The notes under the pieces: generated by a model
Databases searched by the model: none
What the model saw: only the letters and a program-made list of their open reading frames with translations
Told to the model about the DNA's origin: nothing
Assembly (NCBI RefSeq): GCF_028641065.1
Contig: NC_073404.1
Location: forward strand, 31,434,001 to 31,498,000
DNA length: 64,000 nucleotides
Direction of reading: 5' to 3'
Origin: Leucoraja erinacea
Taxonomy: Eukaryota
Shown: in pieces, positions 3,430 to 63,059 of the stretch
Numbering within the stretch: the first letter of the stretch is position 1
How the letters are laid out: the number at the start of each line of letters is the position of its first letter
Translations under genes and position numbers: made by a program

Positions 3430-3980
3430 TGTGGAGGAAGGAACTGTAGATGCTGGTTTACACCGACAATAGACACAATATGCTGGAGTAACTCAGTGGG
3501 TCAGGCAGCATCTGTGGAGAACATGGATAGGTGACGTTTCACAGAGTGCTGGAGTAACTCAGCGGGTCAGGCAGCATCTGTGGGGAACATGGATTTACGT
3601 TTCGGGTCGACACCCATCTTTAGATTGAGAGTCGGGGGAAGGGAAACGAGAGATATAGACGGTGATGTGGAGAGATTTGGAACAAATGAATGAAAGATAT
3701 GAAAAACAGTAACAATGATAAGGGAAACGGGCCACTGTTAGCTGTGGTCGAGGTGAGAACTAGTTACAGACAATGAGACACAATAAGACGACTTTGAAGC
3801 TGGTAGGAGATGGATGGAGAGAGAGTGAATGCCGGGGTAATTTGAAGTTAGAGGTATCAATGTTCATGCCACTGGGGTGCAAGCTGCCCAAGCGAAATAT
3901 GAGGTGCTGTTCCTCCAATTTGCGTTTAGCCTCACTCTGACAATTCGGGAGACCATGGACAGAAAGGTCAGTGTGGGAAT
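3430..3980 (-). mobile_element. Penelope-like element 3' end (GIY-YIG C-terminus plus terminal repeat with one duplicated 66-bp unit)
   Basis: The reverse complement of 3840-3975 matches the ...KLEEQHLIFRLGSLHPSGMNID segment seen at 14860-14945 and 33680-33760. Confidence 0.8.
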
Positions 3981-4222
3981 TAGTTTAGTTTAGAGATACA
4001 GCATGGAAACATGCCCGTTGACACGACCAGCGACCCCCGCACACTAACACTATCCTACACACACTAAGGGCAATCTACATTTACACCAAAGCCAATTAAC
4101 CCACAAATCTGCACGTCTTTGGAGTGTGGGAGGAAACCGAAGATCTTGGAGAAAACCCACGCATGTCACGGGGAGAACGTGCAAACTCCGTACAGACAGC
4201 ACCCGTAGCCGGGATGGAACCC
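3980..4222 (-). mobile_element. tRNA-derived V-SINE (HE1-like), 5'-truncated
   Basis: Reverse complement of the SINE body at 10445-10930 with a (TAAAC)n tail. Confidence 0.8.
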
Positions 4223-5610: not shown

Positions 5611-7463
5611 CCCTGGTTCACAAGGCACAATTAGTGATCTATTTGTTGCCCGTTCACCGTGAGTTAATTGCCACCTTGTCCCACTTGCCCTACAATTGGC
5701 ACTGACGGAACAGCGAATGAGTGAACTCGGTGTGGCAGTGAGCACCAGGGAGATGAGACGCCCAGACATCCTGTCAACGTCATTCAGCATAGTTTACTTA
5801 GAGTCACTGAGTTGTACATCACAGACACTGGCCCTTTGGCCCACCCTGTCTATGCCCACCAAGTTGGCTTACAGGGCTGGACACAGAATGCTGGAGTAAC
5901 TCAATGGGTCAAGCAGTATCTCTGGAGAAAATAAATAGTTGATATTTCGGTTCAAGACCCTTCTTCAGGCTGGGCTATAGACTGGGCCCATATACTGGAC
6001 TAGCCCCTGCAATTGGTCCAGATCCCTCTAACCTTCCTGTCCATATACCTGCCCAAATTAAAGTCATAATTGTATGGGCTTCTGCAGCTTGCTCTGGCAG
6101 CTGGTTCCAGATACAGACTACCCTCCGAGTGAAGATGTTGCCCCTGTGGTCCCACTTAAATCTCCCCGCTCCTCCCATTATCCAATGCAATGTCCCAGAG
6201 GAGATCAGCAAGTATCCAGCAGTGAATGCCGGGTATATTAATGTCCCTCCTGTCTGTATCATTTATCATCACAGAGTGAGAGAGGGTTGAGTTTGTAGAT
6301 ACAAAAAGCTGGAGTTACTCAGCGGGACAGGCAGCCACTCTGTAGAGAAGGAGTGGGTGACGTTTCAGGTCCATCTTCAGAACCCGTCTGCAGAAGGGTC
6401 TCGACCCAAAACGTCACCCATTCCTTCTCTCCAGAGGCTGCCTGTCCCGCTGAGTAACTCCAGCTTTTTGCGTCTATCTTCAGTTTATACCGGCATCTGC
6501 AGTTCCTTCTTACACAGAGGGCTCAGTGTAGTTTATTTTCGAGATACAGCGCGGAAACAAGCTCATCGGCTCACCGTGTCCGCACCAACCAGCGATACTC
6601 ACACATTAACTATCCTACACACACACACTAGATACTATTTACATTTACACCAAGACTATTAACCTACAAATCCGTACGTCTTTGGAGTGTGGGAGGAAAC
6701 CGGAGCTCCCGGAGAGAATGACACCGGCAGTCGCCAAGTGGGACAGCCCTTTAGAGTTTCACATCCGCGCTTCTTCTCTGCAAGGATTGGGAACTTTAAG
6801 AAAGGTTTTACGTTGCACAGAGAGGGAAATGTGGGGATCGAGAAGAATGGAAAATTTAGTTTAGTTTAGTTAAGAGATACTGCGTGTAAACAGGCCCTTC
6901 GACCCATCGGATCCAGGCTGACCAACGATCCCCTCACATTAACACTATCCTACACACTCTCTAGGGACTATGTTTATATTGATACCAAACTAATGTACCT
7001 ACAACGTTGTGGGATAGTACTCGTGTACGGGGCGATCGCTGGTCAACACCGACCTCAATGGGCCGAAGGGCCTGTTTCCACACCGTATCTCTAAAGCCGA
7101 AAGATTACATTCCTCGCTGTAGAAAGGGATATGGAGAGGATGTCTGTCTGCTTGTCGGGTGTGTAGAGAAACATTGTGGAAAAGCGCGGGGGCGGGGAGA
7201 GAGCAAGAATTACTCACAGAAATGGAGCTATAACGGACTGAAATAGCACCAGGCTGTATGTTTTCATTCCAAAGTTCTGTTTTCCTTTGGGGTTTGGACG
7301 TTATTTGTGAACGGGCGCTTTGATTGCAGCTTGAGTAACTTCCTGAACAGGGCGTGTACAGCGGGCTCAGCAAACAGTGACAAACCAGCAGCTCTCTCTC
7401 TCTGCCCACTGTTAGATTCACGGTCAGGCTGTACCATCCATTTGTTTACATCAATACCAAAAT

Positions 7464-8179: not shown

Positions 8180-8722
8180 GGCGTGTGTCGGCACTGGGCC
8201 TGGACTTGTTGGAGTTTAGAAGAATGAGGGACCACATTGAAACATACAGAATAATGAAAGGCCTGTATAGATTGGATATGGCGAGGATGTTTCCACTGGT
8301 GGGAGAGTCTAGGACCAGAGGTAGCCAACTCAAAATTAAAGGAGTAGATAAGGGTTTCTACCGTCTGAAGAAGGGTTTTGGCCCGAAACGTCGCCTATTT
8401 CCTTCGCTCCATAGATTCTGCTGCACCCGCTCAGTTTCTCCAGCATTTTTGTGTACCTTCAAAATTAAAGGACGTTCTTTTAGAACGGAGGCAAGGTGGA
8501 ACTTCTTTAGTCAGAGGGAGTTAATCTTTGGAACTCATTGCCACAGAAGGCTGTGGAGGCCAAGTCAGCCGAGGCCAGGCAGAGATAGATAGATTCTTGA
8601 TCAGTACGGGTGTCAAGGGTTTTGGGGTGAAAGCAGGAAAATGGGGTTAGTCAGCCCTGATTGAAGGGCGGGATGGACTCAATGGGCTGAATGTCCGAAT
8701 TCTACTCCTTTAACTTGTGAAC
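8180..8722 (+). mobile_element. CR1 3' fragment carrying a nested hammerhead-like short repeat (8344-8458)
   Basis: The ORF reads ALGLDLLEFRRMRDHIETYRIMKGLYRLDMARMFPLVGESRTRG (CR1 ORF2 C-terminus). The insert is flanked by a TCAAAATTAAAGGA duplication. Confidence 0.85.
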
Positions 8723-9954: not shown

Positions 9955-10444
9955 TAAGGAACGGGGAACTGATTGTGGATGATCAGCCATGATCACATTG
10001 AATGGCGATTCTGGCTCGACGGGCCGAATGGCCTACTCCTGCACCTATTGTCTATAAGATGTAGGCACGAGGAACGACAGATGATGATTTACAAAAGACA
10101 CAAATTGCTGGAACTCAGCGGGTCAGGCAGCATCTGCAGAGAGAATGGACAGGTGACGTTTCGGGTCGGGACCCTTCTTCAGGTTGATGGAGTCGGGGGG
10201 GAGAAAGCTGGGAAAGAGGTGGGGCAAAAACTGGCCAGTGATAGGTGGATACAGGTGAGGGGTTGATTGGCAGGTGAGTGGAGTAGGTGACAAAGGCTCG
10301 AGGTGAAAAGGAGGTCAGATAAGGAGGTCAGATAAGGAGAGAAGTGTAATGTGAAGCTGGAGGAGGGAGGGATGGGGACGGGTAAACCGGGGGGGGGGGA
10401 GATAGGACACATGGGACTTGGTGATGGGAGATGAGTGTACAGAG

Positions 10445-10930
10445 GAGCGGCACGGTGGCGCAGCAGTAGAGTTGCTGCCTCACAGCGCCAGAGACCCGGG
10501 TTCAATCCTGACTACGGGTGCTGTCTGTACGGAGTTTGCACGTTCTCCCCATGATCTGCATGGGTTTTCTCCGGGTGCTCCGGTTTCCTCCCACACTCCA
10601 AAGACGTACAGGTACGTAGGCTAATGGGCTTTGGTAAAATTTGCAATTTGTCCCTAGTGTGTAGGATAGTGTTAAGGGCCTGTCCCACTTTCACAACCTA
10701 ATTCACCACCTTTTTTACTCGTGGACATTTTTCATCAGGCTAGAAAAACGCCCCGACCTACGATGGCACGAGTACCAACGACCCCGTGACGACCTGCCTA
10801 CGACCCCATGACGACCATGCTGCGAATACGAGTCGAGGGCAAACTCGGCAGAGGTGGTGAATTAGGTCGTGATAGTTGGACAGGCCCTTTAGTGTGCGGG
10901 GTGATCGCTGGTCGGCGCGGACTCGGTGGA
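10445..10930 (+). mobile_element. tRNA-derived V-SINE (HE1-like), interrupted by a MITE
   Basis: A-box-like TGGCGCAGCAGTAG, B-box GGTTCAATCC (~10499-10508) and V-domain-like TCCGGTTTCCTCCCACACTCCAAAGAC. Confidence 0.88.
10675..10888. mobile_element. PIF/Harbinger-type MITE (214 bp) nested in the V-SINE
   Basis: ~36-bp imperfect TIRs starting AGGGCCTGTCCCACTT with a TTA duplication (10672-10674, 10889-10891). Removing it restores the SINE sequence GTGTTAGTGTGCGG. Confidence 0.9.
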
Positions 10931-12357: not shown

Positions 12358-12635
12358 GGGATGGCACAGTGTCGCAGCGGGTAGAGCTGCTGCCTCACAG
12401 CGCCAGAGACCCGGATTTGAACCCGACTCTGGGTGCTGTTTGTGTGGGGTTTGCACGTTCTCCCTGTGACCTCGTGGGTTTCCTCTGGGTGCTCCGGTTT
12501 TCTCCCGCACTCCTGTGTAGGGAGTGGATATGAAAGTGGGCTAACATAGAACTGGTGTGAAGGGGTGATCGATGGTCAGTATGGACTCGGTGGGCTGAAG
12601 GGCCTGTTTCCATGCTGTATCTCTAAAGTAAACTG
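12358..12635 (+). mobile_element. V-SINE copy
   Basis: Same tRNA-like head and GGGCTGAAGGGCCTGTTTCCATGCTGTATCTCTAAA tail. Confidence 0.8.
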
Positions 12636-13574: not shown

Positions 13575-14395
13575 TCAAGTCACAGTTATTTATATAGCAC
13601 ATTTAAAAAAACAACTCTCGTTGGCCAAAGTGCTTTGCATTTGTTCTAAGAATAGTATAAACAAACAAACTACATACATATATACATATAACCCTCGTTC
13701 AGTGGACGTCAGGAAAGGCTTGGGAGTATAGATAAGATTTTAGTCTTGACTTAAAGGAGTCGATGGAGGGGGCAGTTCTGATGGGAGGGATGCTGTTCCA
13801 CAGTCTAGGAGCTGCAACCGCAAAGGCGCGGTCACCCCTGACCATATGCCTAGACCGCGGGATATTCAGCAGCCCCAAGTCGACCGATCTGAGGGGCCTG
13901 GAGGTGGATTGGTGGGTGAGAATACTTTTAATGTAGGAGGGGGCAAGCCCATTGAGGGCTTTGTAGACATAGAGGAGGGTCTTGAAATGTATACGGAACC
14001 GCACAGGGAGCCAGTGGAGAGAGGCCAGGATCGGGATGATGTGGTCCCTTTTTCGGGTGCCCGTCAGGAGTCTCGCTGCGGCGTTTTGGACCAGTTGCAG
14101 GCGGGACAGGGAAGATTAGCTGATGCCAGTGTAAAGACAGTTGCAGTAATCTAGGCGGGAGGAGATAAATGTGTGGATGATCTTTTCGAGGTCATCAAAC
14201 TGGAGGAATTGTTTTATTTTAGCTATCGTCCGTAGCTGGAAGAAGCTAGCTTTTACCACGGCATTGACTTGTTTGTCAAATTTCAGTGCTGAGTCAAATA
14301 TCACGCCAAGGTTTTTGACGTGAGGTTTGAGTAGTGGGGTAAGGCTTCCAAGGCTGCCTGCTATCATTTTGATGAGTCCGAGGGGCTGAGAAGGA
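13575..14395 (-). mobile_element. L2-clade LINE, 3' ~820 bp
   Basis: ORFs 14116-14367 and 13699-14004 read VKNLGVIFDSAL, SRLDYCN, RFRIHFKTLL.VYKALNGLAPSY and GDRAFAVAAPRLWNS, all typical of L2 ORF2. The 3' UTR has AAAGCACTTTG...GTGCTATATAAATAA. Confidence 0.88.
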
Positions 14396-14709
14396 TGTAT
14401 CTTGTGCTTTGACTTGGCACATCAATTTCCCTCCTGGGATAAGTAAAGTTCTATCGTATTGTGGTGATGCTGCCTGACCCGTTGAGTTACTCCAGCACTT
14501 TGTCTTTTTTTTTGCATTGGACCTTGTTGGAACAGTGCATATAGTGATTGTCAGAGTCATACAGCATGCAAACAGGCCCTTCAGCCCAACTTATCCATTC
14601 CAAACCTGTCTAAGCTAGATCCATTTGCCCACACCTGGCCCATATCTCTAAAACCTTCCCATCCATGTACCTGCTTGAACGACCTCCATGGAAGGTAGAC
14701 AAAATGCTA

Positions 14710-15175
14710 GAGAAATTTGGCTCGGTGATCGCTTCACCCAACACTTCTGCACAGTTCCCAATAACCAACCTGATCTCCCAGTGGCTCAGCACTTCAACTC
14801 CCCCTCCCATTCCGAATCCAACCTTTCTGTCCTGGGCCTCCTCCATGGCCAGAGTGAAGCCCACCGCAAATTGGAGGAGCAGCACCTCGTATTTCGCTTG
14901 GGTAGTTTACACCCCAGTGGTATGAACATTGACTTCTCCAATTTCAGGTAGTCCCTGCTTTCTCCCTCCTTCCCCTCCCCTTCCCTTCCCAGCTCCCCCT
15001 CAGCCCACTGTCTCCGCCTCTTCCTTTCTTCATCCCACCCGACCCCCACATCAGTCTGAAGGGTCTTGACCCGAAACGTCACCTATTCCTTCGCTCCATA
15101 AATGCTGCCTCACCCGCTGAGTTTCTCCAGCATTTTTGTCTACCTTTGATTTTTCCAGCATCTGCAGTTCTTTAT
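14710..15175 (+). mobile_element. Penelope-like element 3' fragment (GIY-YIG C-terminus plus terminal repeat)
   Basis: LGDRFTQHF...PDLPVAQHFNSPSHSESNLSVLGL...KLEEQHLVFRLGSLHPSGMNIDF*. Confidence 0.88.
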
Positions 15176-15489
15176 GCAAATGCCTCCTTTGCAGCTCATT
15201 CCATGCGCCCAACACAATCTGTGTGGAAAAGCTATCTCTCAGGTTGCTATTAAATCTTTTCACCATCACCTTAAATCTGTGTTCTGATTCCCCTACTCTG
15301 GGGAAAAAGACTGCATCGCGGCAGTGACACTGCTCCAAGGACAGCCCCATCAATGTCTTGTACAATTGTAACGTAACACTCCCAACATTGGTCTCAATTC
15401 CCAGTTAGGGTCAGGCAGCCACTGAGGGAACGGGCAGGTGACGTTTCCGGTTGGAACTTACTGCATATGACTCATTACTTGGTTCATAA

Positions 15490-16633: not shown

Positions 16634-18301
16634 CAAATAATGCTGAGAAATGATCTCAGAGCAATCTCGAGCATTAACTGTAATCCACACTTCTGAGAAC
16701 TAGTTTACCAAGGTTTGGTACAATTTCACAAGAATAATTCCAGAGATGAACGACTTTATATGCAAAAGGCTAAATTGTAAATTCTCAGCATTCTCAGCTG
16801 AGTAAGTTAATTTTATGCATATCATAAAGTGTTGGAATAACTCAACGGGTCAGGCAGCATCCCTGGAGGTCATATTTCAGGTCAGGACCCTTTTTCTGAG
16901 GAAGGATCTGATCCGAAACATCATCTGTCTATTTCTCTCCACCTCACTGTGACAGAGTATGTTAGGATATTATGTTACATTATGTATAAGACGTTGGCAA
17001 GGCAGCACTTGGAGTATTGCGTTCAGCTTTGGTTACCATGCCACAGGAAGGACGGTGCCAAGAGTACGGAGAAGATTTGAGGATGCTGTCAAGACTCGAG
17101 GGCACAAGCTACAGAAAGGTTGGGCGGGGTAGTACTTCATTCCCTGGAGAACAGGAGGAAGGTGATCTTATAGAGTACAGGAATCAAGAACTGGAGGACA
17201 TGGGTTGAAGACGAGGGGGGAAAGGTTTAATACGAACCAGAGGTGCAACTATTTCCACAGAGGGTGGTGGGTGTGTGCAAGGTAGTTGAGCCAGGCACTA
17301 TTACATGTAAACGACATTTGGACAAGTACATGGATAGGAAAAGTTTGGAGGGAAGATACACAAAATGCTGGAGTAACTCAGCGGGACAGGCAGCAACTCT
17401 GGAGAGAAGGAATGGGCGACGTTTTGGGTAGAGACCCTTCTTCAGACATGGGCCGTATGCATACAGGTTGGGTCTAGTGTGGTTGGGTCATCTTAGGCTG
17501 AAGGGCCTGTTTCCGTGCTGTATGATCCCATGACTGTTTTGCTGTAGATTCAAGCATCTGCAACTTCATTTTATGCATCTGCAATTATTACTAGCTGAGC
17601 TAGGGGGAAACCAATACCCATTAAATGTTGTGGAAGGAACTGCAGATGCTGGTTTAAACCGAAGATAGACACATAAAAACGGGAGGAACTCAGCAGGAGT
17701 ATCTATTGTGCCCAATCAAATACTTCCACTTTCAAGACTAAAAATATCCCTAATTTTGCCATTTCACAATTGTTACTATTGCAACCTTTAAGACACATTT
17801 ATACAGGTACATGGATAGGACAGGTTTAGAGGGATTCTGGTCCAAAAGCAGGCAGGTTGGACTAGTGTAGATGGGACATCTTGGCGGGCGTGGGAAAATT
17901 GGACCCGTTTCCACAGTGCACGACTCCATAGACACAAAACGCTGGAGTAACTCAGCGGGACCGGCAGCATCTCTGGAAAGAAGGAATGGGTGACGTTTCA
18001 GATCGAGACCCTTCTTCAGACCCCCATGTTAATTTACAAGAAACTTGTCACAAGGTACTGCCTAGCTGGTTGCATGTAGCATAACCTCACCATTGGCACC
18101 CTCATCATCACTTCAAATATGTCAAAACCACAGCTTTAAATGCTTTGCTCTGTATCAAGATCAGCCTGAATGCATACATTTTGCACAGGCATGCGTTAAG
18201 TAAACTATGCTTCTAATGAGCAACTTCCATTTCTGCACTACAGGTCCATGTTATTGATGCCCTCTCCACAGATGTCAACCAACCCATATACAGTATCTGT
18301 T

Positions 18302-18549
18302 TAAGAAGGAACTGCAGATGCTGGAAAATTGAAGGTACACAAAAATGCTGGGGAAACTCAGCGGGTGCCACAGCATCTATGGAGCAAAGGAAATAGGCGA
18401 CGTTTTGGGCTGAAACGTTGCCCATTTCCTTTGCTCCCTAGATGCTGCTGCATCCGCTGAGTTTCTCTGCTGCACCCACTGAGTTTCTCTGCTGCACCCG
18501 CTGAGTTTCTCTGCTGCACCCGCTGAGTTTCTCCAGCATTTTGTGTACC
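18302..18549. mobile_element. Head-to-head (palindromic) insertion of the Penelope-terminus repeat with internal 22-bp slippage repeats
   Basis: Inverted arms are centred at ~18408 and flanked by TACAGTATCTGTT at 18289-18301 and 18550-18562. Confidence 0.8.
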
Positions 18550-19139
18550 TACAGTATCTGTTGATTTTACACTTCATTTTCACAGCCCAATCATTTAAAT
18601 TCAAGTAAAACACTTCTTGCAAACTTTACATACGAAAAGGAAATCGCATGCAAGTTTTGAAGAAAATAAATTGTAGCCCCTGGAATCTTAAAAACACCAA
18701 ATGCTGGAGGAACTTAGTGGGTCAGGAAGCACTGTAGAGGGAAATGGACAGACAATGTTTCCTGCAACATCGGGCCTTCTGAAAATGTAGCGCCATTCCC
18801 TCCAGATGCTAGACACAAAATGTCTGAAGGAGATTCTCAACCAAAAACTTCACCTATTCTTTTTCTCGAGATGCTGCCTGACCCGCTGAGTTACTCCAGC
18901 TTTTTATGGTGGTACATTTGAGTCTGAAGGGTCTCGACCCAATATGTCGCCTATTCCTTTCCTCCATAAATGCTGCCTCACCCGCTGAGTTTCTCCAGCA
19001 TTGTCTACCTTCCAGCTTTTTGTGTCTAACTTCGGTGTAAAACTGCATCTGCAGTTCCCTCCTACCTTCCACAGATGCTGCTTGACTCACCTCTGGCACT
19101 CTGTTTTGTGGCCATGTTCAGCTCTCTCTGCCATCGGGA

Positions 19140-19729: not shown

Positions 19730-20340
19730 TAGTTTTTAGCTTCTTAATTAAACCAGTAGTGGCAATTCTTTTATCAACAAATTTGATAAACACAGAACCC
19801 TTGTGCAGGGTCTCATTCCTTCTATCACCCATCTATTCCCACTACAAACACTGCCTGACCTGCTAAGTCCCTCCAGCAGATAGACACAAACTGCAGGACA
19901 GGCAGCATCTCTGGAGAGAAAGAATGGGTGACGTTTCAGGTCGTGACCCTTCTTCAGCATCCAGTTTCCTTCATTACTCCTCATTTACATGAAAATGTTA
20001 ATTTTCTCAAACGTCTCATTTCTTTCATTAAATTATTTTAACTTTAACGTGGCAAAAAGTCAACGCGACTATTTTTTCCCTTCAATCTATCCATCAGGTT
20101 AATTCAGGTGTGCATCTAGTTATTCCCTTCCCCTCAATGCAATGCTGCAAGCTTGCATATTCAACATCACTCCTGCTTCATTGACATTTTAGTTATTGTA
20201 ACCCATCGAGCCACAGCTGAAACTTTAGAAATGCAGATGTTTGATTTAAACACAAAAGTATGTATGTCTAAAATCACACTCCTAGCCTCTGAGAATTGAT
20301 ACCAAGAATACCCACGATAAACAAGTGATGGTGATTAATA

Positions 20341-20398
20341 GAAAAAAGGAACAAAAAAAGTTTTATTGCAGAAAATAAAGCAGCAGAAGAGTTTTATT
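20341..20398 (-). terminator. NUFIP2: Candidate distal polyadenylation signals of NUFIP2
   Basis: AATAAA on the minus strand at 20393-20398 and 20362-20367, followed by U-rich CTTTTTTTGTTCCTTTTTTC (20341-20360). It lies near the edge of the repeat-free block. Confidence 0.6.
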
Positions 20399-23300
20399 TG
20401 AACATTTTTTTGTACCATGATTGTCAGTGAACTTAGTAGACAGTCATGACTTAAGTCTTGAAAGGAAACAAAATTGAAAAGCCTGCAGCGAAATTTAATT
20501 CACTTCCTGGAGCTCGAGAGCATGGCTAATGCTGCCAGGAATCGACTTTTACAGCTACAATCTATTACAAAGTGGATGGGTATACAGAAAGGAATTAAGG
20601 TTAAGAGTGACAAAAACTTTAGACAAAAGAAATTTCATATACAATAAAACTGGATCACAAAATATTTTTTCAGATATCATTTACTTTGGAGTTGCCATGT
20701 ATTAAGGCCACAGTCCCATGCCCAGGTCAAGTTTGTACAATCAGTTCATAACATACAGTTGCACAAGAACAGTTCATTATCCACATGCTCAATTCCAACA
20801 ATATTTAAGAAACTATGGTTTCATAAAAGTATCTTTCCTCTCAAGATTCACAATGCTGATTTCAAGTTGTGATTAAAATTAAAAAAAATACAATGCTAAT
20901 AACCAGATCTCCATTCTTCCTTCTGACAGGCGTTTAGGAGACAAGATCATATAATCTCTATTTTTCCTTGGTTGTTCGACCACTTGGACACAAGATGAAA
21001 AAGCATGACAGATTTACAACAGTGATAATATATATATATATATAGATATATATAGATATATCTATGTATATATGTATGTGTATATGCATTTTCAAATACA
21101 ACACCAGACAAACCTCCTCCTCTGGGAAGAAGGGACCGTGTGTATTATTTGCATGTCTAGTGCTTTCCATTTCAGTATTTATATCGGTGGCAAAATTAAA
21201 GCAATTTGTAGCCATAACATGTTTGCAAATAATTCAAACCATTTGAAGAAGCAGTGAGGCGTACAAGCTTATTTTGGGATGGGGTAGGAAAAATAAAAGG
21301 GGAGATTGGGCAAACCATAATTATCTAAAACATGGCAACTCCCAAGAATCAAGTCTTCTGTGGGTTCTGGTTACAAATTTACAGAGGAATTCATGCACAT
21401 TCATCCAGGATTAGTTTCTGTACTTCTCATACCAGCTAAATCATGGTAGTTTACAATTTGGATACGCTTTAAATTTACACTCAAACACACACACACACAC
21501 ACGTAGTAACTGGCATAAAGCATGGAAACACAAGTTCCTTTCGAATTGAGAAGTTTCTTTGAAGCATTTAAATTGTACTAATCCAAACTAAGGAAATAGT
21601 TCCTACTGAAATGCATCAAGTCACTTTGTAGGAATAGATTCTCAAGTTTTTATTTCTCCTCAGATGATGTCATTTAGTGTTGAATAGACCTATTGGAGAA
21701 CAGAAACATTTTCTGCCAAAGTGTTGTTTCGTGTGTTTCAGATTCTCAATACAAGAGAGACCACATTGTGATGGGGGATTATCGGAGGCATACAAGACAT
21801 TATAAAGGGCATTTTGCTGGGAATGATTTAACTGATAAGATAAAATTTAACTCCTGGAGCTCACGAAAGGTACTGTACATTAAGTCTGGCAATTAATATT
21901 AAAATGTATGTTTTTGATTACAAGCACTAACTAACCTGTAACAGGTCAGAAATCAAGAATCAGTCATGACGGTTATTGTACAATTCCCGATGTTATTTAA
22001 AAAAAAAGATATTCACAAGCACACTTTATTTATAGAAAACCTGTTCTGTTGAATTGTTTAGATCAAATAGGCACTGGATATTTTATAATCCTCTGTATGT
22101 TTAGGAGGTGCCCAAATGATTTATAAAAGAGTATTTTAGGTTTGGTGGCAGTGAGGGGAGGGGAGAACAGTTGGAGTAAATCAAAAACATACATTTTGGC
22201 CAAACCATCAGCCATACATCTCTGTACACCTATTTATATTAACACCCATTTACAAGATAACTTTCTATATAAATTCTCCTATGGCTTTTGAAACAAAATT
22301 CAAAAATTGACACTAATTGAAAATAGCAACAGTTTAATCAGGAATTATGCAGTTCTTTACAAATGTTAGAAATAAGAACTTTTAAAACGTGTGAGATATA
22401 GGTTATAGCTTTTAACAATCGTGAGACATACAAATAGGTGACAAATACATGAAAATGAAAGAATTGGGTCATTCTTTATTGAACCTGCTCTATCTGAACA
22501 GAGTCTGAACTTGTAATGCAAACCACAAACATCTTGATGCTTGAATATCTCAAAGGGTTAAGGGGGTTGGGAGAATTCTACATTACTAATGGGTAATTGG
22601 CCCATCAAGATATGTTCACCCGACCCTGACTATAGAACTTAAACTGCAAAGAACAACGCACACACACTCCAACATAAACATACTGAATGGGAAGAAATCT
22701 ACTAACTCAAAAACACGTGCATAGCTCAATACCATCAGCTCAAGCAAACATTACTGGAGCTTCAGCAAAACCTGAGTGTGCAAAATGCATTTCTAATGTA
22801 ATGCAAGCAGCCCAGGAAGTAAATCTCACACAATGATACACAGAGGGATCCTGTATAAGGCAGAATTAGCAGAGATGTTTTTTGAGCAGGAGGAAGAAAT
22901 TACAGTTTTCTACTCAGCAATAAGTTGCAGACAACTATTTTTTTTTAAAAGCAAGGTGCTTATTAACACATTCAGGATTCACAGACAATTTAAAAAAATG
23001 ATACTGTAGCCACACACGTTCTTACCAGAGTGAGGGCAATTCTATATCTTCATAAATCAATATCATGGAAAACGTTAACTGTTTGTATCATATGCTGCCC
23101 AACTTTTGGCTAGAAAAATTAGACCATGTCACCAATACAGCAGCAAGACAAAAGCTTGGTTGACAGGTGTATTTTGCAAAGCCTGCCATTATTCCTGTGG
23201 TATATCATTGGGTGGTAAAGAAACGAGCAACTAAAAACTGTTTGTTGAATATACCCACTGGATAATGAGAACATATAATTGCACAATAAATAGTTTGTTC

Positions 23301-26300
23301 CACTTAAGACCCTTCAGGCCATTCATCTAATCAGGTTAAAATATAACTACACCAACACTGCTGTAATAACACAGTCCTATGTATTTGACATTGATGCTGT
23401 TCTTTTTCAGCTTTAATGGCATTAATGAAATATTTTTCTTCACTCGTATTTAACTTACAGCCATTCTACATAGTTAAAGCAGAATTTTCCCAAATTTTCA
23501 TCTGCAAGAAAGAAGTGACTAAATTCCTTAAAGTGATTCAAAGTGTCCTGGTTGGATAGCAAATTCAAAAATAAAACGGGAAACAATGTACTCCATGCAT
23601 CTTTTCACCAACACACACACGGGCAAACCACAAGCTTAAGAACACTTGGGAATAAAATCTGCAAAAAGGTCAGTCTCCTGAAGTTGTTAAGCGAAAGATC
23701 TTCCAGCTATGTATTAGTTACTAGATGAATAATATAAACGTGTCATTACTAATACCAATTCCCTATTACAACTATGTAATAAACATGAGTTTACTTCTCA
23801 ATTTCTACTAAAGGCTACCAACTCTCCCACATCCCTCACATTTCAGATGCCTAAATGTTTGCAGATGGGAACTGTATTAATACTTACTAGGTCAGTCGTA
23901 ATACACAGGGAACCAACACCTCATTGCCCACCACAAGTGCCAAGTAGAATGTTAGCTGCAATTGCCATTTCACGTGGATATTTTTCAAAGATTGCAAAAA
24001 AAAAAAAAAAAAAAAAAAGTGTTTTACTCTCGCACATGATGTAAACAGGAATTTCCTGAACTCAAACTTGTTGACCGAGTCATGTCTTTTCATTTGGAAA
24101 TACGTAACCAGCAGAGAGCCATTGCCAAATACTGGTTATGGTTAAGAAATACTGTATCTGAACACAGCAACATGTTTCAGTCACCAACTCCACTCTGGTG
24201 GCATAAATACACCGAGCATATAATTCTGAAGCACTACTTATTCAAAGGTATTATGCTCCTCAGCACTCCAGCTTTATGTTCTATGCTAATGTATTTCACG
24301 ATACATTTCCATGCTGTCCCTACTATTAGGATGCCTGGTCAGAAACCCCATGTAGCAGCTTCAGTCTATTACATACAACCCAATCACCCTTTACTGTAAA
24401 CAGATACTTGAACAAAGGGAAAGAATAATCCTTGAATACTGGTTCAAGGATTGAACAGCCTAAAGCTTTTCCAAGCTGTGATTTGACAAAGTTTCTATAG
24501 ATCAAATGTTCAATCCCACATTTATACACTTTAATTTTTTTTTGATTTTTAAATTAACATAATTAGTAACAATAGCAAGCATTTAAAAATACATTAATTT
24601 TATGGTGACATACAGACAAGACTTGCATTAATGAACCAAAACTAACCATACAGGCCATCAAATTTGATGGTACAATTGAGAAAATACTATGGGGGGGGCG
24701 GGGGGGGAGTGACACAAACTAACAGTTCTTTAAACAAATGTGGGTGGAACATGGAGCACACATGCATGTCGGCAGCTTTAACTCCCTGAGGTTCCGGCAG
24801 CCTTTGCCTTGGGGAAAGGGGACACAATATGGGACCTGGAATGAAAAAGGCTAACCTGCAAGGCCTACAGCTGGACTGACATTGCATTACAAAAAAATAA
24901 TTCTTTTTAAAAATAAACACAGGTATCAAAGACTTCAAACATGATTAGTTTGTATCGTAGCAACAAGAATTTAAAAGAACCTATGCTATCTGACTTGCTT
25001 AGTGCCATTCTGCAATAATTAGACCTCTGATGATTATTACTCGATGAAATGAAATCAACACATGGCACAAAATAAATTAAGTTCTTATTCTCAATACTAA
25101 TAAACGTATGCACCAGATACTGTATAGATCTCACACACACATGCTCTCATACACACTCAGTCCCTCTTCCCAATTTTAAGTCTCTTCATAGAAAGGGCAC
25201 TGCAGTCTACACTGTATTTGGTTTATGCTACACAGTACTAACAATTGAGGCGGAAAATGTTACATCCACGACAGTAACACATCAGCATTCACTGTACTAA
25301 TTAGTCACAAATGATTTGAACTACGCTTAAAACTTACATGCCTATCCAAAAAAATATAAACAGATTAAAAAGTTAAGAAATTTTAAGTGCTTATTGAATA
25401 ATCAAAGAAGAGTGACAGATCACAAGATAGAACAAGGTGTAATTACGCATAACAAAGTCTGGGTGGGTTGACCCAGTAGTTGTATGGCCCTAGTGTACCA
25501 GATATGTACAGTACCAAACATGTACTGGGCTGCCCTACCATTCATTCTAGGGATTAGTAATCAAATTAAGTTGTTACAAATTTGTTGGGAGTAGCCAAAT
25601 TAGTTATTAATTGCTTTGAGTAAACGACCCATGGCAAGACTTTTCCCCATTTGACATCTGCCAGCGAACATCTCCAAATATGACCAAGAAAGATTCTGCT
25701 AACAATATGTAGTACAAAATAAGAAACTGTTGAAATTCTGAAACAAAACTGCCCATCTTGGATTGTTCATTAGTATACTTTGCTTATTACTGGGAATCAG
25801 TTAAAGCCCCCAAAATATCAGGCTTGTGTTTAAGGTAGCACAAACTCAACAAAAAACTAAATGCAAACCTTTCTATTCCATTGGGAGGGGGAAAAAGAAA
25901 ATGGAAAGGACAGTGGTTTTCTGCTTTTTCATTTCGGTGTGCAAAGGCATACGTAAGGTTTTCTAAAAAAATACAGTAAGTGGACAGATCCTGTGTCCAG
26001 ATGCCACAGGTTACAAATTTAATCCTGGCCACCATCATGCAAGCACACTTTTGTCCCAAAAAAGTATGCTAGCTTGAAAATGCTCTCCCCAGAAATGGGC
26101 TTTTACTCAAAATAAAATCAGCAGAAATATTTGGCATTGTAAGATTTTAGTTTATTAAACAAATTAGAGGGTTAACTCCTGTCTAGTCCTTGAAAGATAA
26201 CCAAACTGATAAAAGGGAAGCACAAGCATCTGGGGAGGAGCAGTGTTGAGCACATTACATTATCCACAACCACACTGCAGAAATTAGATAGAGGACATTT

Positions 26301-27700
26301 ATTTTGCAAGACAGAGCGTAAAGCCACAGGGACGATAAAAACAAATCTCTCCACTCTGGTGTCTAGTCTTACATGCTGCACAAGCTGTAGTGTTCAATAA
26401 CTACCGTTGCACATTCACAAGTCCATGCCTGCACACTCTTCACTCACTTCTAATATTGCCATAAAGCACTTTGCTGATTTGTAAAATCCAAGCACATTTT
26501 TCATATTAAAAATATATCTTTAATAGAGTTTAGAAGCAGCAATAAAGCTGTGGACTACACAGAATGCATTAGAATTCAATAACCAAATCATCAATTTTGA
26601 CAGAAACTGTCCCATAAGAGGGCTAAAGAATGTAGGAGAGTGATCCAATTTTAATTTGACTTTTTAAAATCTACTTTTTTTTTCTCTTTTTAAAAAAAAT
26701 GTATGTTTTTGTTGCACGATTCTGGTATATAGTGCATGAAAATGCAATTTAAAAAGCAAGATGATATTAAAAAGGGAAAGGAGGGCATAGTAAGCAAATA
26801 CATGTCATTTAGTAATAGTTAAGGCCAGATATGCAACGAGGAAATCTACTGAATGGGATATTTTAATGGCCTAGAAGGGCAGCAAATGTGAAGCCCCGGA
26901 GCAAAAGCAGTGCAGTTTATGTCACTAACACGTACGATGGCAAATTCGTAACAAAACTAAAAGGGAAAGCATTGTACAACATTAAATACCTAAGTTGAAT
27001 CACTCCACATTTCACATAATACACCCTCCGCATGTGGAGCATGGTCTTTCTGATCAGTGAACCATTAGACCTGCATCATTTAATATTGCAGTTGTCTGAT
27101 TTTGATATCTTCCCAGTGATGAGTTAAGACAATTTTTCCCCCAAGGCCTAACAGGCCATCTTAATCCCAGCAAAATCTGAGAATGTTGCAGCAAGGAAAA
27201 AGAAAAAACACACACCGTACTTCAAGGCATTATTCCAGCATAACTTTTTTTGGGGTTTTGTTTAAAAAGTTCTGCAAATCCTCGTATTTTCCCCCTGTGG
27301 AATCTGTGCACTCACAGCCAAATGCAGCCTTTGTGAAGTGGGACAGCCCCTTCAGTGGTTCGCCAGAGCCTGACATTACACCAGCAGGATCTTAAGAACC
27401 AGATTTAAGTAAAATGTCCACTATTCATTGCGTTCAGGTTTTGCTTTGTAATACGTTCAGTACCAGAGGTCATTAAATATCCAATTAAAGTCCATCTAAA
27501 TAACTGTTGGACACACTCTTTGCACTCACTCAAATTCAGTTTGTTTTTTTAAAAATATTTTTTTTTGTTTTTATTTATTTTGAATGTCTCTCCTGAACTG
27601 GCCCACTGCTGAAGAGATGATTTTGTTTTAAAAGGAGCATAACCGCTTCCAGACAGTGGCTTGCAGCAACAATGAAAATAGGCAGTTCACCAAGCTGACT
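20360..27700 (-). other. NUFIP2: Inferred long 3' UTR of NUFIP2 (~7.3 kb)
   Basis: AT-rich unique sequence with no recognisable SINE/LINE copies, running from the stop codon to paired AATAAA. Mammalian NUFIP2 also has a multi-kb 3' UTR. Confidence 0.65.
21027..21085. repeat. (TA)n/(TATAGA)/(TATG) microsatellite
   Basis: Seen directly in the sequence. Confidence 0.9.
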
Positions 27701-27753
27701 TCATTGACCAGGACGGTCCATAGATTCATCATAAGTAACTACTCTCGAAGGAT
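27701..27753 (-). CDS. NUFIP2: NUFIP2 coding exon 4 (last): (D)PSRVVTYDESMDRPGQ*
   Basis: Acceptor TTTTTATTTCAG and phase 1. It matches the human C-terminus DPKRIITYNEAMDSPDQ*. TGA is at 27703-27701. Confidence 0.93.
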
Positions 27754-28562
27754 CTGAAATAAAAACAGAAATGTTTATCATGTAGATACACGTACTTCAA
27801 TGTGCAATTATAAAATCAAATCATTCATTACAATTATACATCTTCATTGATGATTTAGTAAGAATTAATTCTAATGTTGAATGTTGGACTAGATCCAATT
27901 CACAAGGAACCACAATTCCACAGAATATTCCAATCCAAATACAGTATCAAACAAATCTTGTTGCAAACCAGGAGGGATATCTTTAGCCAGATGGTGGTGA
28001 ATCCGTGGAATTGCCACAGGTGGCTGTAGATGCCAAGTCATTGGGTATTGTTTACAGCAGAGATTGATAGTTCTTGATTAGCAGGAGTGTCAATGGTTAC
28101 AGGGAGAAAATGGGGTTAAGAGGGAAAAAAAGACTGGTCATAATCGACGCAGACTCGATGGGCTGAATGGCCTAATTCTGTTACTAAGTTTTATGGTCTA
28201 ATGAAAGAGGAAAAATCAGAGTAGATGGCAGTTTCAGCCAGTTTATGAAAGAGGAACCAAGCTTGGTTCTCCACTCTCCGTTGTGGTATCAATCTATCCA
28301 CGTTCACATCATATAAACAATTTATAACTTAAAACTAAGTAACTTGTAAAATGACAATGCTGGAATAATTCACAGGTCAGACAGCATCCATGGAGAACAT
28401 GGATAGGTAGATAGATTGATACCACGCCGCGACCCTTCTTCAGACCGTTGAGTTACTCTGACACTGTGTTCTTTAGGCCGACTAAGTAACATGCATTTCA
28501 TGCTGACACTATATTGCACCTTAATTGAAAATTGAATGCTCGAAATTTTTAATTGCAATTAC

Positions 28563-31500: not shown

Positions 31501-32806
31501 GAGTACATTTCCACAGATGCATTTCCTCATTAGAAAGATAAGCACCAAGATTGCCAAGTGATCCTTGACCAAAATAAAGTCCATCTTTTGGCATATGTGT
31601 GCATTTAAAGATAGGCAGACTACAAGGAATAATGTTATACAACTGAGCAAATTCAGATTCTCACTAACTAATCCACTAATATTCAGTTGCCTTTTGCCAT
31701 TGAAAATAGGATCAAAGCACCCACAACAATTATCCATAATCCTTGTCAGGGTTAGTCTTTAATGGGTCTACAATTGTTAACATTCACTCAAACCTGTATA
31801 AAAAAACCCTCTGAAATCTATGCACATTTGCTGTTCTTATTCCTTTGCCGGAACAATTTGAGGGGAACATTTTTAACCAGGAAGAGAGAAACAGTCTGAA
31901 GAAGGGTCTCAACACCCATTCCTTCTCTTCAGAGATGCTGCCTGTCCCGCTGTGTTACTCCAGGTTTTTGTGTCTATCCTCAGAGAGAAACAAATCCTCA
32001 TTTCATATACAAAACTTTGATTTCTAACACCACACAAATGGAGATGCAATTTCTTCCTCTGAACCCTAGCAAAGCCACTGGTACACTAAAGCACTGCCTC
32101 CTATTTGCCCTGAAGGAACTAAAAATACGAGAAATGTTTATTCCTTTGGCCTGGGCAGAAGCAAATGTCCAGCTTTAATTAAACCAAGGTGTATCTGGCA
32201 TTAATGTGAAATACTGTACATTAACATTCTAGACCTAAAACTAATTAGTAACTGAATAAAAATAAATCTCAATGCGTCGCCATGCAGAGATGATCCACAA
32301 ATTATGGGGGGGGGGGGGGGGGGGAAAAATTGCAATCTTCCAGAATGCAAGGCCATGTCAACTGCTCATACATCAAGAACCATTAGGAAAAAGAGTGTTA
32401 ATTACTTTTGTGTACATAAACTCTACGAAAGTCAGGGCTCTCACTTAACTTTTTTTCCCCTGTTGCCAGCTGGGCAACCTCGGCAGCTTTTTAGGTTGCC
32501 AAATGACAGTTTAGGTGGTCATTTAAGACGGCTTGCATGATGCGTGCGATAATGTGGTTGGACGAAGTGCGTAGTTACTAGTCGGAATTATGGTCAATAA
32601 AGCATTCGCATATTATTTCTGCTTCAAATAAAGTCACAAACTAAACATATTCACCAACCAAGACATGATATATACCACAATGACATGTAGCAAAATTACA
32701 ATACAGTATCTCAACTCTTTTTACACGTTGCAAAGAATGCAATTTCTATTATCTTTCCACTTCCAAACAAAAATCTGGTTGGATTATTCAGCATATGATC
32801 AACCTC

Positions 32807-33935
32807 GGTGAGACCAAGCGCAGGCTTGGCGATCGCTTCGCACAACACCTCCACTCAGTTCGCAATAACCAACCTGATCTCCCGGTGGCTCAGCACTTCA
32901 ACTTCCCCCTCCCATTCCGAATCCGACCTTTCTGTCCTGGGCCTCCTCCATGGCCAGAGTGAGGCCCACCGCATATTGGAGCAGCACCTCATATATTGTT
33001 TGGGTAGTTTACACCCCAGAGCTATGAACATAGGCTTCTCCAATTTCAGGTAGTCCTTGCTTTCTCCCTCCTTCCCCTCCCATTCCCAGCTCTCCCACAG
33101 CCTACTGTCTCCGCATCAACCTTTCTTTTTCCCGCCTACCCCCTCCCGACATCAGTCTGAAGAAGGGTCTCGCCCGAAACGTCGCCTATTCTTTCGCTCC
33201 ATAGATGCAGCCTCACCCGCTGATTTTCTCCAGCTTTGTCTACCAACGGGATCCCACCACTGGCCACATCTTCCCATCTCCTCCCCTGTCGGCTTTCTGC
33301 AGAGACTGCTCCCTCCATACCTCCTTGGTCAATTCGACCCTTCCCACCCCCTCTCCTGGCACTTTCCCATGCAACTGCAGGAAATGTTACACTTGTCGCT
33401 TTACCTCCCCCCCTGGACTCCATTCAAGGACCCAAGCAGTCTTTCCAGGTACGCCAGATGTTCACCTGCACCTCCTCCAACCTAATCTAATGCACCCGCT
33501 GCTCTAGGTGTCAGCTGCCCTACATCAGTGAGACCAAGCTTAGGCTTGGCGATCGCTTCGCCCACCACCTCCGCTCGGTTCGCAATAACCAACCTGATCT
33601 CCCGGTGGCTCAGTACTTCAACTCCCCCTCCCATTCCGAATCCAACCTTTCTGTCCTGGGCCTCCTCCATGGCCAGAGTGAGGCCCACCATAAATTGGAG
33701 GAGCAGCATCTCATATTTTGCTTGGGCAGTTTACACCCCAGCGGTATGAACATTGACCTCCAATTTCAGGTGGTCCCTGCTTTCTCCTCCGCTTCCCAGG
33801 TCTCCCTCAGCCCACCGTCTCTGCCTCTTCCTGCACCCTCACATCAGTCTGAAGTCTACCCAAAACGTCGCCCATTTCCTTCGCTCCATAGATGCTGCCT
33901 CACCCGATGAGTTTCTCCAGCATTTTTGTCTACCC
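32807..33935 (+). mobile_element. Penelope-like element, partial-tandem (pseudo-LTR) insertion, degraded
   Basis: Two successive copies of the GIY-YIG region. The second includes the Cys linker TFPCNCRKCYTC and FQVRQMFTCTSSNLI...RCSRCQLPYISETK.RLGDRF. Each copy ends in the terminal repeat. Confidence 0.9.
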
Positions 33936-35870: not shown

Positions 35871-36417
35871 TTTGAGATGTTCAACATCAAAAGATCTAGC
35901 CTCCACACAAGAAATGTTCACGTGTATCAGTTTTACATGAACTGCCCTTGCATTGTAACTGCATCCCCTTGTTCAAGACTCCACCACCATATCTCAACAT
36001 CCTTCCTGGCTAGGATCCCCTTAGGATCTTATTTTGAGTCGGGTCACCTTTCATTTGTCTAAATTCAAGGAATACGGACCCAAACTTTTTAGCCTTTGAT
36101 GGGACAACTCTAGTAGCAGGAATGAGCCTGCTGAATCTCAAGGTTACCCCTGGGTCCTAGACTGTAGCAAGATAAATAGCCTCTGTAACAATCCTAATTA
36201 GTCTTCTGAAACTCCTCTCCCCTAATATTTTTCAGACTTCATTTGATATTAACTGATCCTGCAGACATTTTGTTACCCTTGCATCAACCACACAAATCCA
36301 TATTGTTTCCCTAACAGGCAAGCAAATTTTGCCTTCGACAGAGACTGAAGCTTGTAGTTGTATACAAAGATGTTATCTCCCCCAGTGCCCTGAACAAGTA
36401 CACAGCATTTCTTGTTC

Positions 36418-36544
36418 AAGAAGGAACTGCAGATGCTGGAAGATCAAAGGTACACAAAAATGCTGGAGAAACTCAGCGGGTGCAGCAGCATCTATGGAGC
36501 GAAGGAAATAGGCGACGTTTCGGGCCGAAACCCTTCTTCAGACT
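36418..36544 (-). mobile_element. Solo 127-bp hammerhead-like short element with 13-bp TSD
   Basis: GCATTTCTTGTTC at 36405-36417 and 36545-36557. The minus strand begins AGTCTGAAGAAGGGTTTCGGCCCGAAACGTC. Confidence 0.85.
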
Positions 36545-38897
36545 GCATTTCTTGTTCCTACACTTTTCCTAGCAATAGAGGCCAGATTGAAATTATTTTT
36601 TCCTGACGAAATTTCTATTTTCTTTCAAATGTTTGCTGTGCCTGTGAAACGGCACCCTGAACATCAACTCATTATACCCATACACCAACATCAGGTTCTC
36701 AGCATTTATTTTTCCTACCAAAGCAAACAACACATTATGTGACACCTGCAAATTTGTCTCAGGCACTTTGCATCCATTTCTCAGCTCGTTTTCCCACTTA
36801 GCATCAGTGAAACTTGCAACATTTTATTGTATGTAGGTAAAAACATTTGCACAAATGGGAAATATTGACATTTTCCAGCTCTGAACTCCCAGCTGACAAC
36901 AGATAGGAAAGGATGCCACCAGCAAGAAGGAAAAAGTAAACTAGCAGGACTTCAATATCACACACAAGTTTAATTATTGTATTTTAACCCATACACAGAA
37001 GAAAGGTGAACTGAAATAGACCGTCATTTGTCTCAGCAATTTACAGCTATTCAAACTTATATTCCTCACTAGTTCAGAGTTTAATTGGAATCTGTTCATG
37101 TGTCTGAAGAGGAGTCTCGACCCGAAGCGTCACCCAATCCTTCTCTCCAGAGATGCTGCCTGTCCTGCTGAGTTACTCCAGCTTTGGGTCTATCTTCGAT
37201 TTAAACCAGCATCTGCAGTTCCTTCTTACACAGATACAACCTATATCGCAGCTTTCCTGCACCACTCTGACAATTTGGTGCCATGAGGTTGTAAGAGGCC
37301 AACTTTATTTTTGTCAATAAGCATGACCAATAAAAACATGCAAATTGAATGTCATTAACATCCAGGGGCCATTTTGATTCCTGCTCCTTACAGACCATTG
37401 CCTCTTTCTACTCGGGGAAAGTCCAGGACAATAATCTTATGGGTAAAGGCAGCTAATGAACAGAAGCAAACCTTAACACTTGTGGCAGCCACTCTTTAAT
37501 ACATCACCATTATAGCAAATCAAAGCTATGCAAAAGCTAACAGTTTAAATTGGAATATATTAATAATCACAAATGTAAACTCCAGTTGCCTATCAAGTTG
37601 CTTTGATGGTTGTCATTAAAGAATGCCCTTACCTGCGTACTCTTGAATAACAGAATTATGATACAATAGACCGTTACTTTGACCCACCAAGTCCATGATC
37701 ACCTGTTCAAATTAGATCCATGTTACTCTACTTTCTTATCCACTCCCTACACATTGGGGCAATTTTACAGAGGCCAATTAACCTCCAAACATACATGTCT
37801 TTGGCATATGGGAATAAATCAGAGCACCTGAAGCAAATCCACATGGTCACAGAAGGAACATGCAAATGCTACCCAGCATCTGAGGTCAGGATCAAATCAG
37901 TCATTGGCACCATGAGGTTGCACCTATACCAGCTGTGCTCTTTATACTGCAGGATGAAGCCTCATTCTACAACTGGCAGCACCAAAAATCCTTGCTGACT
38001 GCACAATTCATTAAAGATTTTAAACTAAAATTAGGAACCCTAACTGGGATCTTGCAGTAGATACTCTGATCCAATATGTAAATATAAAAGCTCCTTTGTT
38101 TCAACCAAGCTCCAACTGAAACTTCCTGTCAGGAAATGAGATGCATTTCAGTGCGTAGGTGCCAAATGCACTGCCTGCCCTCAGCACAAGTGTCGTGGGG
38201 GGGGGGGGGGGAACTTGTTTCTTCTATGCCACCCCACAACTTACGCCTCAATCCCATAAACCCACAATAACCAATTTTGAATGAACAATTAGTCTCCGCA
38301 TTCCTTTTGAGTACAGAATTTCAAAGGCACAATGGGATGTGGTGCAAGGTATACAGATCAAAATGTATCCAGGTTTAATACCACCTAATTGTAATTTTAA
38401 CAATCTCAGCTAGAAGTGTCTAATGCTATTGTACGCAATATTTTCAGTGCACTCATTGCTCACCATACTTGAACATATGACAATAAATTCAACTCGACAA
38501 CATCATGGCTGCACGGTAAAGAGAAGAAATATTCAATCGAGGTTTCTAACAAATTGCCCTGCTAGAAACATGCAGCCATGCCAGGTACATAGTCAGATTC
38601 CATCAAGCCGCACACAAAGTGGAACGAACACGCATCTGGCATTTAAGAATAAAACAGGAACAACACAAGAACGATTTCTTGATAGGTTTCACACTGCCAA
38701 GGTAACATTTGATATGCTTACTGGGACAACATTCCCTCTAATAGCCATACTCCAAATGGCAGTGGCTTGAACCTATTACTTGCATAGATGTTTTGATTCC
38801 CAATATAAATGGACACCAAGGTGAACAAAGTCTTGAGATTAAGTGTATTATAGCATATAATTTCCATTTGTGTGAAAACACTATTTAAAAATATTAC

Positions 38898-41203: not shown

Positions 41204-41455
41204 AGCGGCACAGCGGTAGAGTTGCTGCCTTGCAGTTACAGAGGCCCGGGTTCGATCCTGACTACGGGTGCTGTCTGTACGGAGTTTTACGTTCTCCACG
41301 TGACTGCGTGGGTTTCCTCCAGAAGTTCCCACACTCCAAAGACGTACAGGCTTTTAGGTTAATTGGCTTGGTATAAGTGTAAATTGTCCCTAGTGTGTGT
41401 AGGACAGTGTTATTGTGCGGGGATCACTGGTTCTATGCTGTATCTCTAAACTAAA
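41204..41455 (+). mobile_element. V-SINE copy (NUFIP2 intron 1)
   Basis: GGGTTCGATCCTGACTACGGGTGCTGTCTGTACGGAGTTT body and CTAAACTAAA tail. Confidence 0.85.
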
Positions 41456-62981: not shown

Positions 62982-63059
62982 ATTTGTGACTTATTTTTTA
63001 ACCTTTTCTTAAACAAGTCAACCAAACCCGTGCGTCTATACTTGTGCCACCAACAAAGT

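Follow-up and report, generated by a model that had tools for sequence, protein, structure and literature searches.

Hammerhead ribozymes of a minimal type (min-HHRs) have been reported from the Penelope-like elements (PLEs) of 40 metazoan species, in a survey whose search descriptor sets helix I at 3–7 bp and whose motifs from Culex, D. virilis, and Oikopleura include a helix I of 2 bp (Cervera and de la Pena 2014, PMC4209133). The Schistosoma motif described there was inactive as a monomer and had low activity as a dimer, and cartilaginous fish are absent from the 56 motifs of its Fig. S3. As described for PLEs, the pseudo-LTR (pLTR) has an optional 30–40-bp tail and occurs in partial tandems and inverted truncated copies, and a CX2-5CxxC linker characterizes the Neptune and Nematis groups and is absent from Penelope/Poseidon (Craig et al. 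2021). In Poseidon_Ac (PAc) of the green anole, cleavage was demonstrated as a protein-assisted reaction and was not required for insertion in vitro (Frangieh et al. 2024, PMC11167929). In D. virilis Penelope, transcription is reported to start 46 bp before a 75-bp intron, and the AG preceding the hammerhead ends an intron (PMC2377424). Finally, a recent preprint reports non-LTR retrozymes in the one chondrichthyan that it covers (Li, Clavereau and Pollet 2026, 10.64898/2026.07.22.740005).

Here we describe a repeat family in a 64,000-nucleotide stretch of the Leucoraja erinacea genome, referred to below as the window. We consider it highly probable that this family carries a min-HHR in the pLTR of a Neptune-type PLE, and that the source elements would cut their RNA weakly, as a dimer or with the help of protein.

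A minimal hammerhead at the head of a repeat

A sequence-only reading of the window drew attention to a hammerhead-like core on the minus strand at 10155–10182, and its letters are as given there. The pattern CTGANGA-N13-GAAACGTH has six exact matches in the window (8365+, 10155-, 17992-, 19930-, 36514-, and 60391+), against a mean of 0.00 and a maximum of 0 in 100 dinucleotide shuffles. The proposed identity as a Penelope-type minimal type-I hammerhead agrees with the published min-HHR feature by feature. Stem III is the loopless palindrome ACGU in the family majority and in both best copies (8365+ and 36541-); the extra base after A9 is present, as in the published motif; the G10.1–C11.1 pair is GC in 17 of 27 copies and GU in six; and stem II, with 4 bp and 88.8% of cells paired in the same number of copies, lies inside the min-HHR helix II range of 3–7 bp. 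With 2 bp, paired in 81.5% of cells (27 copies), the stem I of the family falls short of the 3-bp descriptor minimum. Judged against a canonical type-I hammerhead, which has full helices I–III and loop–loop contacts, the motif is without a stem III loop and has a helix I of only 2 bp, and an Rfam scan of the window gave 0 hits at gathering thresholds. On its sequence features, the motif is a minimal hammerhead of the kind published in 2014, with helix I as the borderline element.

At 10155–10182 (-) itself, core and 4-bp stem II are intact and both stem I pairs are lost: the stem of about 2 bp ascribed to this copy is absent, with C.A at 2.1/1.1 and A.C at 2.2/1.2. The copy, whose repeat reaches about 10070, is predicted to be inactive, having lost a needed stem. 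The suggested extension of stem I by CAUC/GAUG fares no better: the consensus fold places GAUG in an 8-bp pairing to the 3' tail (14–16 of 16 sequences per pair), and the upstream CAUC is missing from most copies. Among the other copies that had been listed with the same core, the best formed is at 36514–36541 (-), with core, 4-bp stem II, ACGU, and a 2-bp stem I that includes one G.U; the motif at 8365–8392 (+), also fully formed, belongs to the same subfamily. The copy at 60391–60418 (+) keeps the core and has a G.G mismatch in stem II; the motif at 33157 is present with a stem II of 3 bp; and the copy at 55108–55135 (+) has a G12-to-A change attributable to CpG decay and is predicted dead. 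The core is also intact at 17992–18019 (-), where stem II has two G.U pairs and is predicted unstable, and at 19930–19957 (-), where stem I is lost.

Abundance and decay of the family

The repeat is, as had been stated, the most abundant of the window: it forms the deepest dispersed family, with up to 51 self-BLAST hits versus up to 12 in other dispersed families. The earlier estimate of 20 or more further diverged copies is likewise borne out by about 65–70 fragments. A profile HMM found 71 fragments at E<=1, with two on the reversed window, and the core region is included in 38 of them; a longer model that includes endonuclease parts found 65 fragments at E<=0.01, amounting to 7,999 bases. 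With 6382-, the mis-anchored half of an inverted pair, set aside, 37 copies are aligned over the core, and in 11 of these every core position is retained. The complete set of core, firm 4-bp stem II, ACGU, and 2-bp stem I is limited to 8365+ and 36541-, with 18019- and 33157+ marginal. G12 and C11.1, which make up a CpG, are each altered in 12 of the 37 copies, as expected if methylated DNA decays neutrally. The scattered genomic copies, the one at 10155–10182 included, are decaying and predicted to be inert. In contigs of run X3, summed depth was about 20 in unique bins, 0.8–1.2 million in endonuclease bins, and 5.5–8.4 million in short-repeat bins; these depths, which are not copy numbers, hint at a very abundant family dominated by short copies.

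The majorities of the three larger subfamilies (15, 7, and 3 copies at a threshold of 0.14, with 8 of 38 poorly aligned copies left out) differ at 13 columns, none of which lies in the core or stem II, a constancy that is partly circular in that the clusters were built from flank columns. A finer threshold of 0.12 adds differences in loop II, a change of U-A to U.G, and one CpG change of G12 that is confined to a single 3-copy cluster. Core constancy across subfamilies was thus found, on few copies. An identical loss of 3 nt within the core GAAGAA was also observed in five copies (2432+, 15056+, 18924+, 31186+, and 49020+) when 27 of the 38 core copies were tallied, and it spans at least two subfamily backgrounds.

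The Penelope-like element context

The sequence-only reading had the motif directly following a GIY-YIG ORF. The link itself stands, as six of six endonuclease remnants in the window have the motif downstream on the same strand; it is not a direct one, the motif lying 101–105 nt past the endonuclease stop in three copies, and it does not extend to the copy at 10155–10182, which has a pyrimidine tract upstream and no endonuclease hit. A Pfam scan of 11 proteins assigned 0 families to the six short PLE remnants, and the GIY-YIG call is a motif reading: the GIY-YIG variant and CCHH residues were read in the window frames and in the relatives P0001, P0002, P0004, and P0005. The best named relatives of the endonuclease remnant, from 8 hits among 64 candidates, are Leucoraja and Rhinoraja proteins with 70–73% identity. 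A CX4CxxC linker is present in the frame at 33205–33507 and again as a zinc-finger linker in relatives P0002, P0004, and P0005. On these residues the element is provisionally classed as a Neptune-type PLE, the linker being common to Neptune and Nematis. The 64-kb window holds no intact PLE ORF and no PLE reverse transcriptase (RT) core.

The endonuclease-bearing remnants vary in extent and preservation. A 5'-truncated PLE end at 32803–33248 (+) has a GIY-YIG remnant, the pyrimidine tract, and the motif at 33157–33183 with its 3-bp stem II; it is followed in partial tandem by a second end at 33249–33934 (+), with the CX4CxxC linker, a GIY-YIG remnant, and a motif at 33849 carrying a 7-nt deletion. 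The end at 14710–15178 (+) combines a GIY-YIG remnant (stop at 14951) and a full tail with a motif at 15056 that is without 3 core nt. The longest remnant, 47930–49146 (+; start approximate), carries linker, endonuclease, a motif at 49020 without the 3 core nt, and the tail, as well as a frameshifted stretch that reads as a putative RT C-terminus. Two minus-strand ends have damaged motifs: 3540–3983, of another subfamily and with a longer spacer (motif at 3623), and 57729–58111, which carries an inverted insert (motif at 57800).

The 3' side of the repeat also conforms to a pLTR. Of 62 fragments, with positions counted from C3, 30 end between +80 and +99 and 20 between +120 and +130, and these two clusters, about 35–40 nt apart, mark out a PLE tail; together with the partial tandems and inverted pairs found in the window, the family shows the traits described for PLE pLTRs. 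A stem of 8 bp (about +47 to +54 with +107 to +114) closes the 3' domain of the repeat and is kept in 14–16 of 16 sequences per pair, with no compensatory changes; it is a candidate RT-binding structure.

Conservation of the stems within and across families

Within the family the stems are paired in 86.3% of 161 cells (27 copies). Stem II covariation, to which the sequence-only reading had looked for support, does not rise above shuffles, 179 of 500 of which were as high. At non-CpG positions of the core, 20 of 360 cells deviate, as against 97 of 1043 cells in one flank (p=0.027) and 115 of 725 in the other (p=4e-7), in copies that were picked partly by core match.

A search with the P0005 protein found no relative in viral contigs (23 candidates) or prokaryote genome contigs (63 candidates), and for this reason the comparison across families was led by pattern. 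A core-only pattern, scanned against metagenome contigs, gave at least 122 loci with 126 matches in about 58 classes. Stem II has at least 4 bp in 91 of these 126 matches, and stem I at least 3 bp in 69 of the 91 (permutation mean 14.7, maximum 27 in 2000), the core being fixed by the search pattern and the stems left free, in rows that are non-independent as families recur; among viral core matches, stem II was found in 0 of 14. Nine metagenome loci have a related endonuclease end, which the pattern also left free, and in eight of the nine it lies upstream on the same strand, 60–133 nt from the motif. Stems thus appear to covary across other families in metagenomes, and this is stronger evidence than the within-family test. 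Eight contigs (L003, L043, L056, L091, L103, L044, L094, and L109) show PLE endonuclease ends, 33–47% identical to those of the window, followed by well-formed min-HHRs, and the stem II arms of the window family recur in five of them. Another family (L035 and L063) has the 2-bp GU/AC stem I of the window type. The window repeat model had 0 hits among 136 metagenome and viral loci, none of which belongs to the window family.

This comparison bears on whether the likeness to a hammerhead arose by chance inside an abundant repeat. One ancestor copied many times yields many matches, and the absence of within-family covariation and of Rfam hits at gathering thresholds fits with such an origin. Against it, the same core recurs at the same post-endonuclease site with different complementary stems in unrelated families, and the motif has been published across 40 metazoan species (PMC4209133). 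A chance origin is scarcely credible in our view, the metagenome comparison having already largely refuted it.

Predicted folding and activity

Several features speak against ready activity. The 2-bp stem I is shorter than that of most metagenome relatives, 69 of 91 of which have 3 bp or more. A hairpin that joins the core to its 3' flank has a predicted energy of -10.6 to -11.4 kcal/mol in three copies, versus -4.5 to +0.6 kcal/mol for stems I and II. When 17 bases of 3' flank are added, this hairpin of purine-rich core and pyrimidine-rich flank wins in four of five copies, and the probability of stem II is at most 0.02, or 0.21 in the copy at 10155–10182. The ACGU self-duplex is predicted at -1.7 kcal/mol, and an ACGU-linked dimer of the active type at -13.3 kcal/mol, above the dimer minimum of -18.8 to -23.0 kcal/mol, in models that leave out tertiary contacts, Mg2+, and protein. 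In nine copies the whole element folds no more stably than its shuffles do (z from -1.86 to +1.79). RNA ends do not accumulate at any place among 42,033 reads drawn from about 6% of a poly(A) run (X22) of a related organism; these reads stem from many loci at 82% likeness, in an assay insensitive to cut ends, and they represent both strands of the repeat about equally.

The earlier caution about cleavage activity was right. In this the family resembles published relatives, the min-HHR of Schistosoma and the PAc hammerhead. As we picture it, the RNA of a source element would be cut after GUC weakly, either as an ACGU/ACGU dimer or aided by the element's protein; catalysis, its dependence on a dimer or protein, and its use to trim tandem or read-through transcripts are ascribed by analogy with the published relatives.

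These predictions could also be read as those of a hammerhead descendant that no longer cleaves in this lineage and whose role at the head of the element RNA would now be that of a promoter, a splice signal, or a protein-binding site. The 2-bp stem I and the dominant inhibitory hairpin predicted here, copies derived mostly from uncut RNA (see below), and the 3-nt core loss in five copies of at least two subfamily backgrounds all favor loss of cleavage, as do the reports that PAc insertion in vitro is unimpaired by hammerhead mutants (PMC11167929) and that Naiad PLEs thrive without canonical hammerheads (Craig et al. 2021). Yet the majorities of the three larger subfamilies retain all catalytic positions, the 3-nt loss falls in a GAAGAA repeat where slippage would be expected, published min-HHRs with a 2-bp helix I exist (PMC4209133), and PAc is reported to cleave once protein is added (PMC11167929). 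We judge such a relic decidedly improbable beside source elements whose hammerhead cleaves weakly.

The 5' boundary of short copies

The fragments begin at preferred positions relative to C3. Of 62 starts, 23 fall at -8 to +3 and four near the cut site (+25 to +31); ten others are at +18 to +24, mostly in one array, and 11 lie further upstream. The upstream pyrimidine tract is present in nine and absent from 25 of the 34 copies scored (37 less three without an aligned C3). In the 25 tract-less copies, T stands at -1 in 21, G at -2 in 19, and A at -3 in 13, and -4 is at chance level (C in 7, compared with 9 of 9 linked copies). The complete short element at 36418–36544 (-) has its first base precisely at -3, and it is at this same A that tails are joined to heads in 15 X3 contigs and one X16 contig. 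Since the short copies start just before the core and not at the cut site, most of them were likely reverse-transcribed from RNA uncut at the hammerhead. This agrees with the in vitro finding for PAc that uncut RNA is the main insertion template (PMC11167929).

Synthesis of their cDNA would begin internally, near either +86 or +128 (counted from C3), and would run off the RNA end 2–4 nt before the core. The simplest cause of so sharp a start would be an RNA 5' end at this place. The TCAGT before the core resembles an initiator element, and we tentatively propose, as a possibility that we rate below even, that transcription starts from the A of TCAGT, that RT runs off there, and that the 5'-terminal ribozyme is held by the hairpin and switched by a dimer or protein, so that the cut removes the cap. 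In the solo copies 18924+, 31186+, 44285-, and 50864+, a G precedes AGT, as a copied cap would give; at four of six copies ending there, these are too few to weigh. Against a start at TCAGT, at least 15 upstream nt are shared in 40 of 52 metagenome copies versus 2 of 30 window copies, a comparison made weak by window copies that are older and indel-rich, and D. virilis Penelope is reported to start about 120 nt upstream of its ribozyme (PMC2377424). A further observation concerns 14949–15055 and 33051–33156, where a GT in the stop codon of the ORF is followed by 100 nt of pyrimidine tract and by a CAG just ahead of the core, an arrangement similar to an intron such as precedes the D. virilis hammerhead; no RNA joint between a GT at the ORF stop and an AG before the core was found among the 15 joints listed.

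Short copies, tandems, and inverted pairs

The short copies raise the question of whether the 125–135-nt unit is an independent, non-autonomous element, similar to a retrozyme or SINE, with its own transcript, amplification by the PLE protein, and adjacent units as dimer partners. This would account for the 25 of 34 scored copies without the pyrimidine tract, for the tail-to-head joints at the A 3 nt before C3 (15 X3 contigs and one of X16), and for the complete 127-nt copy at 36418–36544 (-), which has a clean 13-bp target-site duplication (36545–36557 and 36405–36417); retrozymes are, moreover, reported in the preprint's one chondrichthyan (10.64898/2026.07.22.740005). Set against this, short and endonuclease-linked copies have a common 3' sequence and tail, the window offers no two neighboring copies whose cores are both intact, and the sole long array, at 62183–62992 (+), is without CUGA and stem II. 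In this array of 66–67-nt units, all but the first begin at G12, so that the hammerhead cannot form in them. We regard an independent unit as unlikely; it departs from our favored explanation, a min-HHR in the pLTR of a Neptune-type PLE, only in the origin of the short copies.

Several rearrangements involve the hammerhead region itself. At 18298–18550, 62584–62733, 6295–6516, and 16824–16941 there are head-to-head inverted pairs whose hinge falls inside the hammerhead or a little ahead of it; the first has its hinge in the stem II region and a flanking direct repeat of about 12 bp. One subfamily has a 7-bp near-palindrome in the stem II region at the inversion hinge, and the head-to-head pairs suggest fold-back of cDNA at this hinge palindrome. 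A junction of the first 3' end cluster to G12 recurs at 62183–62992 and 3431–3623 and could reflect RT stalling at stem II, then restarting.

The surrounding sequence

The window contains a large exon of NUFIP2 at 38881–40647 (-; Pfam E 8e-209), and a likely last coding exon, found by a motif, from about 27754 (-). The stretch from 20000 to 28300 is free of repeat copies, as would suit a long 3' UTR of NUFIP2. One of the two best-formed copies, 36418–36544 (-), sits in sense orientation in an intron of NUFIP2, where it is evidently tolerated, as would be expected of inert lone copies; no strand bias of the repeat was found within the NUFIP2 span, with nine antisense versus five sense copies (p=0.42). 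Other repeats include a long tandem minisatellite of roughly 32-nt units at 1–1855, LINE remnants at 45040–47900 and 13699–14421 with RVT_1 hits at 45482–46318, and a second family (10454–10674, 12375–12620, 41207–41431, and 61166–61459) that looks like a tRNA-derived SINE.

Comparison with known systems

The literature searched, with most subscription papers and the repeat databases outside its scope, holds no description of this PLE family from a cartilaginous fish, and the supplements of the retrozyme preprint (10.64898/2026.07.22.740005) may list it for their one chondrichthyan. Non-LTR retrozymes resemble the window family in their short, pLTR-derived units and type-I hammerheads; as described in that preprint, they need at least two tandem units with complete motifs, and none occur in the window. 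The D. virilis Penelope hammerhead shares the 2-bp helix I and an AG just before it (PMC4209133; PMC2377424), and differs in its 2-nt loop 3 and 6-bp helix II (PMC4209133).

Like PAc, the window family has its hammerhead in a PLE pLTR, a tail bounded by two internal RT start sites, and no RNA-seq ends at the cut site (PMC11167929). PAc, by contrast, belongs to the Penelope/Poseidon clade and has its ORF start in stem II (PMC11167929), whereas in the window element the linker is of the Neptune/Nematis kind and the ORF start was not found. Cleavage, moreover, was demonstrated for PAc (PMC11167929), whereas for the window family it is a prediction.

The closest likeness is to the published min-HHR, which has the same CUGANGA with one extra base, the G10.1–C11.1 pair, GAAA-C-G-U-C without loop 3, a palindromic 15.2/16.2, and a pLTR site after the ORF, and whose copies are also mostly solitary and truncated, with inverted pairs (PMC4209133). 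The window family differs in a helix I of 2 bp, with G.U in one subfamily, in contrast to the 3-bp consensus, and in its helix II of 4 bp; the Culex motif has the same combination of a 2-bp helix I and no loop 3 (PMC4209133). The present family thus extends a known and widespread motif to a PLE family of cartilaginous fish with a helix I below the published descriptor, which would not surprise a specialist. Of more use is the sharp 5' start of the short copies, just ahead of the core and not at the cut site, which predicts where the RNA begins; a ribozyme at this very terminus, if confirmed, would offer a direct test of what the hammerheads of PLEs do.
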